From assembly GCA_000004985.1 (NCBI GenBank), contig GG738891.1: a stretch of DNA of 64,000 bases; one strand, given 5' to 3'. Origin of the DNA: Naegleria gruberi (taxonomy: Eukaryota). A program made the translations under genes and the position numbers. This document shows positions 2 to 18,821 of this stretch, one piece after another; position 1 is the stretch's first letter, and the number at the start of each line of letters is the position of its first letter. Under the pieces are notes generated by a model. The model made no database searches. It saw only the letters and a list, made by a program, of their open reading frames with translations, and was not told the DNA's origin.

Positions 2-1444
2 GATACTGAAGATGAAGTAATTGAACTCATTTCAGTTTGTAAGAAACTCCACAGTACTGTTCCTGAAAATCACAAGGAAAGAAAGAACGTACTCAGAATG
101 ATGAAAACTGTTGATAAGGTCATTGAAGATCACCCTCAACTCCAAAATGCTAGACTCAGAGATAGATTTGAACCTGGATTACTTCCTGCAGTAGAAACGC
201 TTACAAGATGGCAACTCGTAAACATTCACAAAAATCTTGTAAATGCTATTCTTGAATTTAGTATTAACCAATATCAATGGAAGCATTTGCAAATTCAAGC
301 TTTCATACTTCAAGATATTGTCGATTCAAAGAGCAATGGTTCTAGAAAGATTGATTCCCCTTTCCGTAGATGGAGATTTTCATTTGTTCAAAAGATGCTC
401 CAATTTCCTGAATGGTTATTCAGAAAGTTTATTAGACCTTGGTTCTTGAAGCTTGTTGCTGTTGTATACGTTCTCTTCTCCTTGATTCTCTTGTGGTGTC
501 AATTTACTCCATTATTTAAGAATGTTACAACTGTTAAGCTTTCAGTTTTAGAAATGTTAATTTCATCAATTGGAGATCGTTTTGTTGTTCAATTTGTTGC
601 TTTAGGTATTATTTCTGTTATTTTAGCAACAGTATTGGTAGCTTTATTTAATGTTAGAGTGATGGAATATTTCAGATTGATTCCAGGTCACACAGATTCT
701 TACAGTTTGTTCTACACTGCTCAATTGCTGTGTAGAGTTATTCCTAGTATGATGTTTAACTTCTTGCAATTGATTGGTGTCAGTAAGAATGATGGTGTTG
801 CCTACTTTAATATTTATGGTGAATTGAGAATGGATGGTTTACTTAAGTTTGGTGTTATTGGTGGTTTTATTGTCGATTACCTTCCATTAGGTATTTTCCT
901 TGTTGTCTTTGTTGCAGCATTCAGAATTTTAGAAAGACTTGGAACATTGATCAACATTGAAAGATTCAAGTATTCAGGTACTGAAAAAGTTACAGATGAA
1001 AGAGTTTTAGAAGGCAGAGAAATCTTGGCTCGTGTCAGAGAAAGAAAGCTTAAACATATTGAAAAAGCTAAAGAAGAAAATAGAGATGGAAGCTTTAGTA
1101 TTACAAAACTCTTTGACAAGTTGGATGAACATGATGTTGGATCTGGATCTTCAAAGAAGAAGTCATCCAAACGTAAACAAAATGAAGACGATGATGACTC
1201 AGATACCATCAAATTTAGTGACAAGTTTTTGGAAGATATTGATCAATTTGCTGAAAAACCATCAGAAAGACACTACCAAAGTGGTAGTAAGAAGGAAAAG
1301 AGTAAGCCAAGAGGTTTCTCTAGAATGGATGACGAAGAAGTCAGTATGGATGATGATATACCACTTAATAGTTATCGTCCTCATGATGATCTTATCAATA
1401 AGATCAGATCCAACAGAAGTAAGAAGTTTGAATCAGTTTTGTAA
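2..1444 (+). CDS. LMBR1-domain (LMBRD2/LIMR-like) multi-pass membrane protein, C-terminal part; 5' end lies outside the window
   Basis: The reading frame is open from nt 2 with no upstream stop, so the ATG at 98 is internal. Several hydrophobic helices are followed by a long charged K/E/D-rich tail, as in LMBR1-like proteins. Stop TAA at 1442-1444. Confidence 0.5.
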   Translation, partial: DTEDEVIELISVCKKLHSTVPENHKERKNVLRMMKTVDKVIEDHPQLQNARLRDRFEPGLLPAVETLTRWQLVNIHKNLVNAILEFSINQYQWKHLQIQAFILQDIVDSKSNGSRKIDSPFRRWRFSFVQKMLQFPEWLFRKFIRPWFLKLVAVVYVLFSLILLWCQFTPLFKNVTTVKLSVLEMLISSIGDRFVVQFVALGIISVILATVLVALFNVRVMEYFRLIPGHTDSYSLFYTAQLLCRVIPSMMFNFLQLIGVSKNDGVAYFNIYGELRMDGLLKFGVIGGFIVDYLPLGIFLVVFVAAFRILERLGTLINIERFKYSGTEKVTDERVLEGREILARVRERKLKHIEKAKEENRDGSFSITKLFDKLDEHDVGSGSSKKKSSKRKQNEDDDDSDTIKFSDKFLEDIDQFAEKPSERHYQSGSKKEKSKPRGFSRMDDEEVSMDDDIPLNSYRPHDDLINKIRSNRSKKFESVL

Positions 1445-8392: not shown

Positions 8393-9691
8393 ATGAGAAA
8401 GGCTCTTATCATTTCCTTGCTCATTGCTTGTTTATTATCTTGTGTGCTCTTGATGAGCAATAATCAAGTCAAGGCAGAAGAGAATGATGATTTTTGGAAT
8501 GCCATTCCGACAACAACAGTTGCTTCTAATCAATTAAATGATGATACGTTATCAACCAGTACTTCCGATGACGAAGAAATGGTTCCATCATCAACAACAA
8601 CACCATCAACAACCAATAATGACAATATTAAATCAACAACAAATCAAAAGGAAGAGGATGAGGAATTTGATTTTAATGAAGATGACTTTACTTCAATTCA
8701 ATCCAAATTAATTCAAGAACAAAAGGAACCATCGGAAGAACAATCAAATGAAAAGCAAGAAGAAACACAACAAGAACCAGTTCGTTTGTTTGGACTTGTT
8801 AAACAAGAACATTATTACTATGAAATGGGATTTGTTGCTTTCATTTTGGCTTCTGGTATTATTTACGTTATCGGAAGATCTGCAGGTGAAAAGGTTTTCA
8901 TGGAATGGGCTGAAAAGAATTTAGTTAACAAGATTATGAACAAGCACTTTACTAAAGTCAACTTTATGCGTGATAGTGCTAATCAATATATTGTTTATGC
9001 AACTGGTAATGAAGCCATTAAACACATGACTTTGAAGGTCACTACACCAAATAAGCAAGATTTGTTGATGGGATTACTTTTAAAGCCAATTATGGGATTG
9101 TTAAATGGAACTTCTATGCTTTCTCAACCTGAAATTTCATTGGAAATGACTTTACCAAGAAGATTTATTGTTCTATTTGGTATGTGTGAACCAAAGAATT
9201 ATAAGAATTTCTTAAAGCAACATGAACCTCTTCAACTTTACACCAAGCATGCCCAATGTGATGTTAATGGAAAGCAATTTGCTGTTTTTACAGATACTCC
9301 AACTTTGATTACAAAGCTCATGTCTCAATCCTTTGTTTCCTATATTGAATCTGATCTCTTGGTCAGTGACATGCTCAAGCCAAGAATTGCTGGAACTAAT
9401 CTTGTTAATTGCATTACTCTCAGAACCAAGATTCAATTCAACAAGACATTATCAGAAGGTGATAAACATAATTCAAAGAATAAGGCCAAACACGAAAACT
9501 GGTTGGATGAATTGATCAATTTTATTTCATTCGATTTTAATTTGACTCAACAAGAAAATGACAGAAATATTAAAAACAGAATGGAAGTTAAGGAAAATAT
9601 TGAAAAGGAAGAAAAGAAACAAAAGTTAAAGGAAGAATCAAAGGAAAATAGACTGAAGAAACTCAAAGGTGGAAATAAGAAAACCAAATAA
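8393..9691 (+). CDS. CCDC47 (calumin/PAT-complex subunit)-like ER membrane protein
   Basis: Signal peptide (MRKALIISLLIACLLSCVLL), an acidic S/T-rich luminal segment, then one TM helix (HYYYEMGFVAFILASGIIYVIGRSAGEK, compare human [29 protein letters not shown]). A cytosolic domain follows, then a lysine-rich coiled C-terminus. AAAAAATG start context. Confidence 0.55.
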   Translation: MRKALIISLLIACLLSCVLLMSNNQVKAEENDDFWNAIPTTTVASNQLNDDTLSTSTSDDEEMVPSSTTTPSTTNNDNIKSTTNQKEEDEEFDFNEDDFTSIQSKLIQEQKEPSEEQSNEKQEETQQEPVRLFGLVKQEHYYYEMGFVAFILASGIIYVIGRSAGEKVFMEWAEKNLVNKIMNKHFTKVNFMRDSANQYIVYATGNEAIKHMTLKVTTPNKQDLLMGLLLKPIMGLLNGTSMLSQPEISLEMTLPRRFIVLFGMCEPKNYKNFLKQHEPLQLYTKHAQCDVNGKQFAVFTDTPTLITKLMSQSFVSYIESDLLVSDMLKPRIAGTNLVNCITLRTKIQFNKTLSEGDKHNSKNKAKHENWLDELINFISFDFNLTQQENDRNIKNRMEVKENIEKEEKKQKLKEESKENRLKKLKGGNKKTK

Positions 9692-9756
9692 ATAATTATT
9701 CAAGAATCTCTGAAAGCAAATCACATTGAACACCTCCATTAAATTAATTAGTATAA

Positions 9757-9801
9757 GTGGAGAGGTAGATGATGGAAGTTCATCTTAGCTCGTTCATCTC
9801 T
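9757..9801. other. Imperfect inverted repeat (hairpin) in the 3' flank of the CCDC47-like gene
   Basis: The sequence is GGAGAGGTAGATGATGGAAGTTCATCTTAGCTCGTTCATCTCTCC. The outer arms GGAGAG...ATGA and TCATCTCTCC are complementary, and an inner GATGA/TCATC stem lies within. Its function is unknown. Confidence 0.2.
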
Positions 9802-10469
9802 CCTTGACAGAGAATCCAAACTCAATCATCCTGTTGTTTCTCCATTAAATTCTTATTAATTTTGATTGTTGCAAGTATTTTGGTGCTTACAATCATGTGG
9901 ATTTGCCCAAACAGTCTAAGCTTTAAGAGGGCAAAAAAGTGGTAATGTTTCCTCAGCAGCAATTCCAACAAGTATTGAAGTCTGTTACTTGGTAGAAGAT
10001 ACCTTACAATAGGCCAAAGGCGCAACATATCCGAAAGTCTTTCTTAAAGCTTCATTTCCGAAAAGATATAATAAGTGTAATCAATGAGCTGAATACGCAA
10101 ACGAAACCATTTTTTTCTTAGGTTGAATTAACACCCACATTTGCTAGGACATAATGAAGTGGTGCGATGGTTTCAATTCAATCGGAATATTTTCATTATC
10201 ACCACTATGACTCAAAATGTTCATTTTCTGGAAAGTTTTACTTTATTGATAACTTTCCATTAAGTGGACGAAATTTCATAATGGGAATCTCAAAATTTCC
10301 CTTCCCTTACTTGGTAAAATTTCAAGCGTTGATGTCAATTGAAAAACCGAAATATCCTCAATCAATATAGCTCGGAACCAACAGTTAGTAATTTCGGATC
10401 ATGAACTGCACTTTAGATGCAAAAAGAAAGATTATTGAAAAGTTTACATTCATTAAATTTCACTTTTAA

Positions 10470-10889
10470 TTATTGACGAAAAGCTACAAGCACAACATTG
10501 ATAATAATTCCAGCTAGGAAGAAGTAACAACCACTAATCAATCCATAAAATAAAGGTCTTGGCATATTTGGATTAATTGCAGTATTCACAGTTGTCATTG
10601 CCAAGAATCCAAATCCAACCAAAGCACCAAACAGAAAACCATCAGCAATTGAATTGATGTTGAATGCTTCAACCATCATACTACTCGTAATGGTGGTCAC
10701 AACTGTACAAATCAAAGGTCCAATTATAAAGATTGGTGCTAGTTTATTCTCTGGTTGATATCTTCTTCCCAATGCTTCTGCATAGACCCTCCCAAAGAGT
10801 GCAGTAAACCACAAACCACCCAAAAAGGAAGCACACAAAGTAGCAACGAGAATTGCAATCCAATTCAATGCTAATAATGAAGGAAACAT
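10470..10889 (-). CDS. Small 4-TM membrane protein resembling the bacterial DUF1761 family
   Basis: 139 aa, ATG at 10889. The N-terminus MFPSLLALNWIAILVATLCASFLGGLWFTALFG matches the NW-A-LVA-F-G-W-LFG pattern I recall for DUF1761 proteins, which are about 130 aa with 4 helices. No introns. Confidence 0.35.
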   Translation of the reverse strand: MFPSLLALNWIAILVATLCASFLGGLWFTALFGRVYAEALGRRYQPENKLAPIFIIGPLICTVVTTITSSMMVEAFNINSIADGFLFGALVGFGFLAMTTVNTAINPNMPRPLFYGLISGCYFFLAGIIINVVLVAFRQ

Positions 10890-11306
10890 TTGATTCTTTT
10901 TTTCTGTATTGAAATTGAATGGATCCGGCTGCTATTTTTGACATTTATTTTGATTGATGGTTCATAAAATTATGTGAATGTTCGAGCAGGTAGAGGAATT
11001 GTAAATGGGCTGAACGATGTTAATTTTCTAATTTTAATACTTGATTACAATATCTATGACACAATAAATATTTCCAAAAGCGTTCTTTGTAAAAATAACC
11101 AAAAAATCTTTCTCATTTGTGCAATTATTCCACCACTCTAATAAATTCCACAAGTGCTCAAATTCAACATCCACCTCCTCTTTATCTCAGTACAGAACCG
11201 TTCCTTAATATCTCACCAATTAAATAGTCTATTTCATATATGGGCCACTTACCATCAGGATCACACTTATCTTTTATCAGCAAGAGAACTTGGCTTCTCA
11301 AAAAAA

Positions 11307-14300
11307 ATGAAACAACACCAGCCTTCCTCCTCACAACAACACCGGCAGTCATACAACAATAATAATACTGGCGGTAGTAGCAGTGTTATTATTGGTGGAG
11401 AGAAGGCCACACAAAATAATAGAGCAAGTGGTAATAGTACATCTGTTGAAAGTATTGCATCTGCTGGTGGTCTAATAATAATACAGTGGTAGTGGGTCAA
11501 GTATCATCATCTACTATGTCGGGAAGAATGGAAAATAATAATCAAGGTGGATTTAATAGACGTTCTGTTCCAGACTTTTTTAAAAACAATAGTGAGCCAA
11601 TAAAGAAGAATAATCAGCAAGGTTTCACGAATAATGGTAGTGGTTCGAATCGAAATAATCACAGAAATACATCAGACAATGTAAATCCAAATAATAACAT
11701 GAAACCATCATCATCTAATAGTAATAATACTTCCACGAATAATTATCAACAGAAAACACATTATAAGAATAATAATTATAAAGGAAATGTTCACCAAAAT
11801 TCAGAACAAAACGATAATTACCAAAGGAAACAATACAAACATTATAACAAGCAACAAGTCAATCATCAAAACCAAACGGAGAATAGACATTCTAGTAATA
11901 TAAAACAAACACTTGATACTCACTCTAATGAACCATTTGGAGGTGGTTCCGACCAACAACTTGAACCCACATACAATAGACAAAATAAGTATACTAGACA
12001 ACCCTACAAGAAGCAGGTCTATGCTAAGCAACCTATTTCAACATCAGAGTCTGTTTCTATGGTAAATAGTAGTACATTTGGTTCTCAATCATCTACAAGC
12101 ACTATCACGTCCAATACCAGTGATCTCTCTCACTATAGTACACACCCAGAATTAAACAAGAAGATTAGATCAGAACTATCAAACAAGCAACAAGAATCAA
12201 AAGCTAAACAGTCAGGTGTTGGTGGAACTCTTTCCTACACATCTCAACTGTTCTATCCTTCCTATATGTATACTTCTAATGCGAGTAACAGTAATAATAA
12301 TTCATATATGCCTACAGTTCTAGAAGGTTGTCACTATTATGTACCACCTACTTTTTATCAGGTACCAACCTCACCAGTCGAAACCCAGAAGAAAGAAGTG
12401 ACAAAGACTCTTCCTTCACCATCAAAGAGGAAAAAGAGAGAAATTGAAAATGATTCCTCCAGTGAAGATGAAGATGATGAATCAATTTCATCAGTTGGTA
12501 GTCAAATTCAATTGAGTTTTGAAGATGATGATTATATTGTGGGATTTGCCTCATTTAATGGATCTTTCTTTTTTTGTTGGCAAAAAGCAACCAAGGAGTC
12601 AGAATCTCAAGCAAAAATAAGAGATATTCTCACATTGAGTTCCAAGTATAGTGGATCTAAACCAGAAACACTATTTTCTAAATGTATCAAGAATAAGTCT
12701 ATTTATGCAGCCCTTAAAAAGTTTATCAAGAAGTTGATCAAACAAAATCAACCTTTTAATCCATATTTGATTAATTCGCATTCATCTCTATTGATGAAAT
12801 TGTTTTTGACCTCGTCAAATACTTGGTTAGAATTTGCTTCCAACTTACCTGCTATTTCTAACAAATTTGCCAAGCTTAAGGCCAGAGAAGTTAAATTACT
12901 TCTTTCTGAATATTCTACAGAATGGAATTATTTTAGTGATATTGATTTGACAAAGGAAGAAAATATAACATCGCTTATTACTGGAGATGAGAACGAACTT
13001 GTAAAGAAATTTATGAAAAGAGTTGAAAGGGAGGACTTTTCTAAATTTAAAAGAAGATCTCATCTTCTTACATGTTCTTGGGTTTGTAAATGTCCGAATG
13101 GTAATGAAGATGTATTTAAAGAATTGCTTAAAACAATTAGAACAGTACAGCCAACACTATCATCAAGTCAAGAAAAGTTGAATCAAATATTCGAAAGAGA
13201 AAAGAACGATACAAAACCTCAGAAAATGACAATATGTGAATTAGTAGCAAAGGTAGATGATTTTGATGCAGATCTGACTAATTTCAAACTTAAAAAGCCA
13301 GAAACATCCATCTTTTCAGAGAGAAGGGTTGTTGATTCTGACTTTTCAGAAACCTTCATCAAAGAACTTTCTATTATTGTTTCTCTAAATATTTTCCAAG
13401 AGTTGAAATACAAGTATGATTTCTCTCACAAGAAACAAAAAGGTGCTGCAAATGATTTCAAGAAGCTTTACTCAATAGTTGATGTTGAGACTCAAAAGAA
13501 GAAGACAGCTTTCAATGCTAAAATCCAATCTGCATACAAAGATGAGTCATCCCAGATTTCTACATTAGAGTTAGAGGAGCACGAGAAGCTCATTCATCAA
13601 CTCATTCAATTTGTTACCTACGACAAAGAATATCGATGCTTCCAGAGGTATTATGACTTGTTAAAGACAGAAGAGGATGACATCAATAGAATGTTCGGAT
13701 GGTTCCAATTTCCGTATCAACTGAAGGCAGTGCAATGGCTAAAGAGACTAAATGCCAATATTAACTGGGTGGATATATATTTGAATAGAATTCATGCTTC
13801 ACCACATTTTGAGGAAGATATTTTAAAGATGATTGATGAGGAATGTGACAGATCTTGTAATTGGGCTAATGAGTCTAGATATTCCTTCTTAGATTATTCA
13901 GACAAAACTTTTACAATTGATAAGAAAGGTACTAAGGATTGTGATGATGCATTTACTATCCTTGATCACAATACAAATTCAATCAAAATTGCTGTCCATA
14001 TTACAGATGTTGCCTCAACAATTCTCAGAAATATTGATTTTTCCAAGAATGTACCACCTGTAGAAGAAAAGAAAGATGCAAACAAACGCTATACTGGAAA
14101 CAAATCAAAATTCAATGATCATCCAATATTCCAAAGTGCACTTTTCTCAGAAGCAGCAAGAAGAATTATGTCAATCTATATTCCAGGTGTTGAGGAAACC
14201 TATGCTCCTTGTTTCCCAAGACATTTATCTGAAGAGCTTCTCTCTTTAATTGATAAGAGACCAAAAGAAGTAATTTCTCACATCTTTATTATTTATAATA

Positions 14301-15478
14301 ATGGAAAGGTTGAATGTAAAGGTGTTGTGAAAGGGCTCATCCAAGTGAATCATTCATACTTTTTCGAAGAAGCTGATGAAAAAATTGATTCACCATATGC
14401 TGATCCATTCTGGAAACATTTATATGATTGTTGCTGTGCTATTCATGAAGAGAGACTTGCGCACGGAGCTAAGAAATTTACTCCTGGTGTTGTTCCACTT
14501 GGTGGTGTTGATTTATCACTTGATTATCAAGATGATTCTCCAAATCCAGAAATTCATGTTAATACTCATAGACAAAATCCATCCAAGTCTTCAAAAATAA
14601 TTACAGAGTTCAGTATTTTACTCAATTCTACTATGGCTAAATATTTTTATGATAACAAAATATGTGGTCTCTACAAGGAGTTTTACCAAACCTACAATAG
14701 GCTTTTACCAGAGTCTATTAAAGATATGGATATTGAGGAATTTGTTGAAGTAGCTTCAATTCTTGACCCAGAAGGAAATGAAACAAATTACCTAGCTCAA
14801 GGTAAAACTCAACAAAATGAGAACTATACTGCTCTACAAAACTTTGAGAAAGAATTGAAAAATCAAGGAAGCAGAAAGACAACTAATATTGGTAAGATTA
14901 CAACAAAACCAACCAAATTCTACCAAAATATTATTGGCGTTGAATTATATATGCAACTTTCCTCTCCTCTTAGAAGATGGCTTGATTTAGTATTACAAGT
15001 ACAACTTGTTCATCATCTTAATACAATTGAAGCTGGCATTCCATGGAAAGGTCTTGAGAGTAGTTTATTCAGTGAAGAGATTTTGCATTATTGGAGTGAA
15101 AAGGTTTCAGACAAGATCGAAACAGTCAAAGATATGGAAAAACAAGTCATGTACCATTACTTTTTATTATATTTGAAAAAGAACATGGATGCATTGAAAG
15201 GTCCATATTTATTAGATTGTGTTTCAGAAATTAACTTTAGAAAGGGTAAAAGAACGAATCACCCAAAACACAAACATAATATTGATTATGACAATCTTGT
15301 AAACAAATCAAAACCAGTCATAACTCAGCTATTGAGATTAAGATTAGTCAATTATAATTACTTTGCAATTGAAGCTTATGTCACCAGTAACATGGTTGAC
15401 ATGGACGAAATTACCTTAGTCAAGGTTGTAGATATTGATTGTTACACTCACACAATTTCTGCTGAATTAGTGCAGTAA
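11307..15478 (+). CDS. RNase II/RNB-family 3'-5' exoribonuclease (DIS3L2-like, no PIN domain) with an N/S/Q-rich N-terminal region
   Basis: The RNB catalytic motif TIDKKGTKDCDDAFTILD sits within a 1330-codon ORF (11486..15478). The first in-frame ATG of that ORF is at 11516. An upstream AAAAAAATG at 11307 can join it through a possible 56-nt intron (11431-11486, GTAATA..CAG), adding about 41 aa. The core 11516..15478 is confident; the upstream exon is speculative. Confidence 0.65.
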
Positions 15479-17387: not shown

Positions 17388-18821
17388 ATGCCATCATCAA
17401 AGCAAGATTTTCAATTCCTGGAAAAGATTGGAAGTGGAAGTTATGGAGAAGTATTCAAAGTGAGAAGGATCAATGATGGAAAATATTATGTGATTAAACA
17501 AATTTCTATTGAGGATTTATCTCCAAAGGAACAAATGGATGCACTGAATGAAATTGCAATATTAAGTAGGGCGGAACATAATTATGTAATTTCTTATTAT
17601 GATTCGTTTCTTTGCCCTGAAAGTCACAAGTTAAATATAGTGATGGAGTATGCTTCGAATGGATCTTTATTTGAGTTTTTAAAAAAGCAACACGGAAAAT
17701 TACTGCAAGAGAATATGATTTGGAAATTGTTTATTCAAATTACTTCAGCCTTAAATTATTTACATAATCTGAAAATTCTTCACAGAGATATTAAGAGTCT
17801 GAACATTTTTATTGATGGAAATGGAAATGCAAAGATTGGAGATTTTGGCGTCTCAAGATTGTTAACCAATTCTAAAGAATTTGCAAGTACAATTCTTGGA
17901 AGTTTTTATTATTTAAGTCCAGAAATTTGTGAAGGTCTACCGTATGATGAAAGATCTGATATTTGGTCTTTAGGTTGTGTTCTATATGAGATGTGTTGTT
18001 TGAAACATCCATTTGATTCATCCAATCAAGGAGCATTAGTTTTAAAGATTTTGACAGGAAAATATGCGCCAATTAGCTCCATATATTCTGCTGAACTGGC
18101 ACAAATGGTGAAAAATTGCTTGAATACTAAGGTTAAATCAAGACCAACTACCATGCAAATTTTAAACAACAGTCTTGTTGTAAAAAAAGCAAAAGAGTTA
18201 GACATTCAAATAGATGCTCTCAGAACACCATCCTCTCCACTCACTCCTACCACAGTCAACATTGAGCTTGGTTCTCCTCAACAAAAAAACAAGAATAGAG
18301 CACCACAAGCTATTAGACCAAGCTCAAAGTACAGTAACCGTAATGTAGTCAGAACAAACACGCCTTCTTCTATACCTGTCAAAAAGGTAGTTGTTTCAAA
18401 CGAATTGAAGTTTGAAATTGTAAATAGAGAGCTTAACAATTCAATTCAAGAGGTCAGACAACTACCAAAAATACCAATGGAATCAAAAGCACCTACAAAT
18501 AAGAAAGATCCAAACTTGACTGTTTATAGTAAGAAGAAGTCTCAACCTCTAATTGAACCGCCACCTTCTAGGGTTGTAGAAAATAATTTAGAAAGTCCAA
18601 AAAGAGCTCAACCTGCTGAAATTGAAATGCTTAAGGCCAAGTGTTTAGGAAAAATATCTGATTCCACTCTCACTGAGCTTATCACGTTCTTTAAAGATGC
18701 CATTGAAAAGGACACTCCTCAAGAAGATTATCAGGATTTCGTTTCTAAGCGTATTGGAAACAATGCTGACATTATCCAAAATATTTATAAGATTATTTAC
18801 CTAGAAAGTCTTGCTGATTAA
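17388..18821 (+). CDS. NIMA-related (NEK) serine/threonine protein kinase
   Basis: GSGSYGEVFKV glycine loop, HRDIKSLNIF catalytic loop, DFGVSR motif and SPE motif. The kinase domain is N-terminal with a non-catalytic tail. AAAAAATATG start. Intronless. Confidence 0.8.
   Translation: MPSSKQDFQFLEKIGSGSYGEVFKVRRINDGKYYVIKQISIEDLSPKEQMDALNEIAILSRAEHNYVISYYDSFLCPESHKLNIVMEYASNGSLFEFLKKQHGKLLQENMIWKLFIQITSALNYLHNLKILHRDIKSLNIFIDGNGNAKIGDFGVSRLLTNSKEFASTILGSFYYLSPEICEGLPYDERSDIWSLGCVLYEMCCLKHPFDSSNQGALVLKILTGKYAPISSIYSAELAQMVKNCLNTKVKSRPTTMQILNNSLVVKKAKELDIQIDALRTPSSPLTPTTVNIELGSPQQKNKNRAPQAIRPSSKYSNRNVVRTNTPSSIPVKKVVVSNELKFEIVNRELNNSIQEVRQLPKIPMESKAPTNKKDPNLTVYSKKKSQPLIEPPPSRVVENNLESPKRAQPAEIEMLKAKCLGKISDSTLTELITFFKDAIEKDTPQEDYQDFVSKRIGNNADIIQNIYKIIYLESLAD

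Follow-up and report, generated by a model that had tools for sequence, protein, structure and literature searches.

The stretch of Naegleria gruberi DNA analysed here, 64 kb in length (hereafter the window), has a GC content uniformly between 30 and 35%, and the gene that concerns us lies on a 339-kb scaffold. At 10470..10889, on the minus strand, the window carries an open reading frame (ORF) of 139 codons with an ATG start, a TAA stop and an intact frame, which is exactly where a previous sequence-only reading had placed an intronless ORF of 139 aa, thought to encode a small membrane protein of bacterial type. The product matches at 100% the N. gruberi 'predicted protein' NAEGRDRAFT_71583 (XP_002673416.1, UniProt D2VRH0), under which name the gene is already modelled in the annotation of this organism. 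The features of the locus are the following:

8393..9691, plus strand: homologue of CCDC47 (PAT complex subunit), 432 aa (PF07946, E=8.4e-20)
9692..10469, no strand: downstream intergenic region (3' flank) up to the CCDC47 stop codon, GC 0.33, like the rest of the window
10470..10889, minus strand: DUF1761 protein NAEGRDRAFT_71583 (ORF list; PF08570, E=5.5e-24; 100% N. gruberi match)
10482..10556, minus strand: predicted transmembrane helix 4, residues 112-136 (AlphaFold2, hydropathy)
10530..10592, minus strand: TVNTAINPNMPRPLFYGLISG, residues 100-120, where conservation in the family is highest; it runs from the end of helix 3 through a short loop into helix 4
10578..10649, minus strand: predicted transmembrane helix 3, residues 81-104, with conserved G92, G94 and L96 (AlphaFold2, hydropathy, alignment)
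10665..10733, minus strand: predicted transmembrane helix 2, residues 53-75, with conserved F54, G57, P58, C61 and T66 (AlphaFold2, hydropathy, alignment)
10797..10862, minus strand: predicted transmembrane helix 1, residues 10-31, with conserved W10, G24, W27, F28 and T29 (AlphaFold2, hydropathy 1.94, invariant columns)
10890..11485, no strand: upstream intergenic region, in common with the divergent RNB gene; presumed host promoter, with no trace of a bacterial regulator
11486..15478, plus strand: RNB-domain (RNase II/Dis3-like) protein, ORF of 1330 aa (PF00773, E=7.5e-37)

The neighbours had been described as eukaryotic, and this holds: the ORF is flanked by the CCDC47 gene, with orthologues in N. 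fowleri and N. lovaniensis at 53-54% identity, and by the RNB gene, while farther out the window contains genes for LMBR1, SMC, a protein kinase, a Pre-SET/SET methyltransferase, an AMP-binding enzyme and a poly(A)-binding protein. The interval in which it sits had to be corrected, since the flanking ORFs are not 1.2 kb but about 1.8 kb apart (9692..11485), with approximately 1.37 kb non-coding. The A-rich start context reported for the gene is present in the 20 nt before the ATG, 70% of which are A (ATACAGAAAAAAAGAATCAA), but position -3 is occupied by C and, in a genome of 33% GC, such a context is weak evidence of anything.

The two flanks were inspected for remains of a bacterial locus. 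The 238 ORFs found at bacterial DUF1761 loci revealed no gene remnants in either flank by tblastn, sigma-70-like sites were no commoner in the flanks than in shuffled sequences, and the 3' flank showed no terminator of bacterial type, terminator-like sites being no commoner there than in shuffles. Two short ORFs, one of 66 aa overlapping the gene in another frame (10744..10944, minus strand), whose tblastn matches were only frame-shadow ORFs of bacterial loci, and one of 67 aa flanking it (10167..10370, plus strand), look like chance ORFs. As for the RNB gene, the listed GTG is probably not its start, which would lie farther upstream: a differently framed ORF (11154..11492) with an ATG near 11309 (MKQHQPSSSQQ...) stops at the beginning of the 1330-aa ORF, which suggests a short intron or a frame break near 11490. 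If the RNB gene does start near 11309, the divergent intergenic region would be only about 420 bp long.

Family membership and membrane architecture

The family had been recognised from an N-terminal pattern, NWIAILVATLCASFLGGLWFTALFG, which is found at residues 9-33 of a protein beginning with MFPSLLALNWIAILVATLCASFLGGLWFTALFG, and the Pfam-A search proposed as a check on that assignment bore it out: the match to PF08570 (DUF1761) has E=5.5e-24 and scores 85.2 bits (gathering score 31). It runs over residues 11-134 of the protein and positions 1-122 of the 123 of the profile, namely the whole domain, and judged on the profile match the score is far beyond chance. The sole further match in Pfam-A was to PF09945 (DUF2177), a predicted membrane protein family, whose weak similarity to residues 11-94 (E=0.0034) gave 17.9 bits, below the gathering score of 26.9, so that the Naegleria protein is not a member of it. 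For one bacterial homologue (P0062) both families, DUF1761 and DUF2177, are among the precomputed Pfam matches, and the tie between the two families would be at most a distant superfamily link. In NCBIfam nothing significant was found for the 139-aa protein.

An AlphaFold2 model built from 85 homologues (pLDDT 92.8, pTM 0.85) placed long helices at residues 10-31, 53-75, 81-104 and 112-136, and a short one at 33-39. The four long helices have average Kyte-Doolittle values of 1.4-2.0 and are joined by polar loops, in agreement with the four hydrophobic helices noted earlier from the sequence; 139 aa with four predicted transmembrane helices is the build expected for DUF1761 (about 130-140 aa). 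All 14 columns invariant in the alignment of 85 sequences are kept in the Naegleria protein (G24, W27, L40, G41, G57, P58, G92, G94, N106, P107, P110, P112, Y115 and G120), and the last six of these fall in the TVNTAINPNMPRPLFYGLISG stretch, which is nearly identical in all 13 sequences of a smaller alignment (A1). The protein has the same start methionine as the metagenomic homologue P0002 (both MFPS...) and is within one residue of the length of its bacterial homologues (139 against 138 aa); it has no N-terminal extension, and hence no added targeting peptide. A Foldseek search of the PDB with the model gave no specific fold relative (best E>1), and a sequence profile search of the PDB gave no match.

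Bacterial relatives and their gene neighbourhoods

When 5.8 billion proteins were searched with the single sequence, 90 matches came back, 89 of them other than the protein itself, at 38-64% identity and nearly all of 136-141 aa. The closest are proteins of 138 aa, 55-64% identical to the Naegleria one. Apart from the self match, the named matches are all from bacteria (Leptospira ilyithenensis, Paenibacillus, Cohnella, Clostridium, Noviherbaspirillum, Caldilineaceae, Bacteroidota), and when all searches are taken together Myxococcaceae (Myxococcota) are also among the named relatives. The three best matches (63-64%) are metagenome proteins encoded on compact bacterial contigs, where the DUF1761 gene stands beside genes for TetR, WYL-HTH, DinB, glyoxalase and SBP_bac_3 proteins. 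A profile search collected 1353 members, and none of the best 120 listed of these bears a eukaryotic name. Of 1.84 billion cluster representatives compared exhaustively with phmmer, those of 442 clusters were related, none closer than 54%; the species genomes of GTDB held no relative above 57% identity, a scan of JGI metagenomes none above 61%, and the 2.9 million viral contigs of IMG/VR none at all.

To place the protein among its relatives a neighbour-joining (distance) tree was computed (37 taxa, 138 columns, 200 bootstraps), with acidobacterial and actinobacterial DUF1761 proteins as outgroups. The 138-aa subfamily including Naegleria was separated from the outgroups with 100% bootstrap, and its other members are all bacterial or metagenomic. 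This nesting, together with the bacterial matches at 60-64%, agrees with the horizontal origin that the sequence-only reading had put forward as possible and for which it had suggested homology searches and a phylogeny. Inside the clade the Naegleria protein was basal in 53-58% of the bootstraps and otherwise paired with one of three metagenome proteins (P0044, P0003 or P0002); because of this unstable position no donor lineage can be named, and a long-branch or compositional artefact in its placement is possible.

The tree is also incongruent with bacterial taxonomy: Leptospira groups with Paenibacillus and Clostridium (Firmicutes), Noviherbaspirillum with contigs of 60% GC, and a Myxococcaceae metagenome-assembled genome with Bacteroidota. 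Since the tree does not follow taxonomy, the gene seems to move often among bacteria too. The TetR genes divergent from DUF1761 in the contig of P0002 (L001, 35% GC; 251..973, minus strand) and in Leptospira ilyithenensis (L039; 3137..3847, minus strand) are 74% identical, from which it follows that the former contig probably derives from a relative of Leptospira and that the regulator and the membrane protein travel as a pair. In Clostridium yunnanense a gene of the phage-integrase family (L006; 5626..6231, minus strand) lies directly downstream of the DUF1761 gene, an arrangement that fits a DUF1761/WYL/YdeI cluster located on or beside a mobile element.

The neighbourhood was counted at 23 bacterial loci of the close subfamily, by considering the ORFs within 2.2 kb, several contigs being short. 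WYL and TetR domains were each found 8 times among these ORFs, and the recurrent companions were OmdA/YdeI (4), proteins of the glyoxalase/bleomycin-resistance fold (3) and DinB (2), to which ArsR-type HTH with SRPBCC/AHSA1 and methyltransferases are to be added. The bacterial 138-aa protein is thus usually encoded by a single gene adjoining a ligand-responsive regulator of WYL-HTH or TetR type.

Residence in the amoeba genome and alternative origins

Of the 90 single-sequence matches, that of N. gruberi itself is the sole eukaryotic one. No homologue from N. fowleri or N. lovaniensis was returned, though the searched collection contains proteins of both species, as shown by the search with CCDC47, and also ORFs called on Logan assemblies of N. 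fowleri reads; the apparent absence of the gene from the other Naegleria is supported by these protein collections. In N. fowleri, N. lovaniensis and an environmental relative the 10-kb flanks of CCDC47 gave no DUF1761 match by tblastn even at E<=10, and the gene order was not conserved. When 20 kb around CCDC47 in N. fowleri (L042) and N. lovaniensis (L044) were compared with the 64-kb window by tblastx (E<=1e-8), CCDC47 was the only match. Since it is the only gene in common, the comparison of flanking synteny says nothing on the insertion site itself, and it indicates that at this locus the gene order is heavily rearranged between N. gruberi and the fowleri/lovaniensis pair.

These two species share the order PIGO, CCDC47, EMC2-TPR, DNAAF5-HEAT, DUF1304, GFAT. 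The DUF1304 gene near CCDC47 was found at 17613..18317 in L042, at 10614..11513 in L043 and at 17429..17812 in L044; a Leptospira protein of this uncharacterised family appears in a transcriptome table of PMC8055020.

Inside N. gruberi the gene is not distinguishable in composition from its host. Its GC content is 0.37 and its GC3 is 0.279, compared to a mean of 0.253 +/- 0.046 for 29 host ORFs of the window (z-score 0.56), and its codon usage, scored on the host table, gave 0.259, close to the host ORFs (0.237 +/- 0.077), while the bacterial homologues tested ranged from -0.61 to 0.17. Only the coding sequence was retained, between host genes and with host base composition and codon usage.

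A second copy of the locus is available on a contig of 968 bp (L004) from an independent ENA metagenome (ERZ929261, run ERR1078381, project PRJEB11402), which encodes an identical DUF1761 protein and aligns to the window at 10096..11050 with 98.3% identity, both AT-rich flanks included; the upstream intergenic region is 98% conserved. From its sequence we consider it a second, environmental genotype similar to N. gruberi. The ORF differs from this contig at three positions, all synonymous (codons 97, 112 and 125), for which the neutral chance is P=0.013 (23% synonymous sites), and the flanks differ by 9 substitutions and a 4-bp indel. From these differences the gene appears to be under purifying selection. 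The contig also shows that an N. gruberi-like amoeba, together with its DUF1761 gene, can be recovered from public metagenomes.

The same data bear on whether the gene, though bacterial in origin, has become a silent or decaying relic that does nothing in the amoeba. The loss of the bacterial regulator and of its partners could be taken in this sense, as could the absence of the gene from the sister species examined, both in the protein collection and in the surroundings of CCDC47. Nevertheless, the frame is full-length and no invariant residue has been lost, although the protein has diverged by about 36% from its nearest relative, the codon usage has been remodelled to that of the host with the frame unbroken, and the only three differences from the second genotype are synonymous whereas the flanks accumulated more changes and an indel; we therefore regard a relic as improbable.

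Somewhat less credit can be given to vertical descent, by which an ancient eukaryotic DUF1761 gene, akin to the fungal members, would have been lost in most lineages including the other Naegleria. The family had been described as prokaryotic, and this stands for the close relatives that carry a name, all bacterial, but not for the family as a whole, since SPAC15E1.02c of the fission yeast Schizosaccharomyces pombe is annotated as a DUF1761 protein (PMC9938405), and fungal DUF1761 proteins are likewise encountered in PMC4706557. These proteins, a fully host-like composition, by which the gene is not recent, and the frequent basal position of Naegleria in the rooted tree are what vertical descent has in its favour. 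Against it, bacterial proteins of equal length and with the same start share 55-64% identity with the Naegleria protein, no other eukaryote occurs among the 90 matches nor a eukaryotic name in the best 120 of the 1353 profile matches, and nothing was returned from N. fowleri or N. lovaniensis, so that many independent losses would be required. The S. pombe protein bears the same Pfam family name, is eukaryotic and is uncharacterised (PMC9938405), and, being absent from the 90 matches and from the best 120 of the 1353, the fungal proteins would be much more distant from the Naegleria one than the bacterial subfamily is. On balance vertical descent is hardly likely.

Still less probable is a transfer in the opposite direction, from a eukaryote or an amoebal giant virus to bacteria, or one in which a virus was the vector. 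Amoebae are known to exchange genes with their viruses and intracellular bacteria, but the distribution, with many bacterial phyla and 1353 profile matches on one side and a single eukaryotic species on the other, as well as the lack of relatives among the viral contigs of IMG/VR, make it very improbable.

Finally, that the ORF is a bacterial contaminant or a product of chimeric assembly, outside the amoeba genome, could be argued from its lack of introns and from the bacterial identity of all other named members of the subfamily, but is extremely improbable, since the scaffold around it is 339 kb long and its neighbours there are eukaryotic genes, GC (0.37), GC3 (0.28) and codon usage match the host, the flanks have no bacterial neighbour genes, promoters or terminators, and an independent contig reproduces the ORF with both flanks at 98.3% identity; on the same grounds of scaffold, flanks, composition and second genotype, the earlier impression of a domesticated gene rather than a contaminant proved right.

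All considered, the gene is very probably a functional nuclear gene of N. gruberi that originated by horizontal transfer from bacteria and encodes an integral membrane protein with four helices, which belongs to the closely conserved 138-aa subfamily of DUF1761.

Possible role of the protein and significance of the transfer

In the literature searched, no DUF1761 protein is characterised and mentions of the family appear confined to expression tables; searching by identifier, no paper was found to name NAEGRDRAFT_71583. The one hint on the function comes from the bacterial neighbourhoods. Contexts of TetR and WYL type encode inducible responses to toxic small molecules. Because a WYL or TetR regulator and small detoxification or stress genes adjoin the DUF1761 gene, the subfamily might conceivably act as a membrane protein of such an inducible response, a guess drawn from the neighbourhood alone, which we hold only tentatively; the families concerned are common 'grab-bag' genes, and this was counted against it.

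The bacterial 138-aa subfamily of PF08570 (Leptospira ilyithenensis, Paenibacillus spp., Clostridium yunnanense; annotated 'DUF1761 domain-containing protein') is the system most similar to the Naegleria protein, with which it shares the start, the four helices, the invariant residues and TVNTAINPNMPRPLFYGLISG. The Naegleria copy differs in that it resides in a eukaryotic nucleus, has the codon usage of its host and one extra residue at the C-terminus, and has no WYL or TetR regulator and no detoxification genes adjacent to it. In the amoeba, transcription would be driven from the host intergenic region in common with the divergent RNB gene, and the first hydrophobic helix may serve as a signal anchor for insertion into a host membrane through the ER pathway. 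The conserved polar loop between helices 3 and 4 (NxAINPNxPxP), on one face of the membrane, would be the working site of the protein. With the effector alone kept, the amoeba could gain the same chemical protection in the absence of the bacterial regulator.

The amoeba grazes on soil and freshwater bacteria. It could be imagined that N. gruberi uses the captured effector of a WYL/TetR chemical-stress module, widespread in bacteria but uncharacterised, free of its regulator, against a toxin of its prey bacteria; this is more doubtful than the proposal for the bacterial subfamily, and we regard it as unlikely. If it were true, N. gruberi would offer a simple eukaryotic setting in which to learn the role of DUF1761, and an example of resistance derived from prey.

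As for the transfer itself, in PMC9928731 2.7% of the genes of N. gruberi are reported to be homologous to bacterial genes, and the candidates for lateral transfer in Naegleria have mostly predicted metabolic functions; neither DUF1761 nor PF08570 is mentioned in those of its supplements that were searched. Other transfers from bacteria to Naegleria likewise consist of a single bacterial gene among host genes, with a composition adapted to the host, whereas NAEGRDRAFT_71583, unlike most of those reported, is a small membrane protein with no predicted metabolic function. Judged from the sequence comparisons, we consider it an ordinary and well-supported transfer from a bacterium to an amoeba, in a genome known for many.

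Neither the transfer nor the pairing with regulators seen in bacteria alters the view that the field has of Naegleria or of horizontal transfer. The gene adds one clean and well-controlled case to the bacterial genes fixed in a free-living amoeba, and indicates that a small membrane protein can persist without its bacterial regulator. The pairing of DUF1761 with WYL/TetR regulators and genes of detoxification type is a testable lead on the family, perhaps more useful than the transfer itself.
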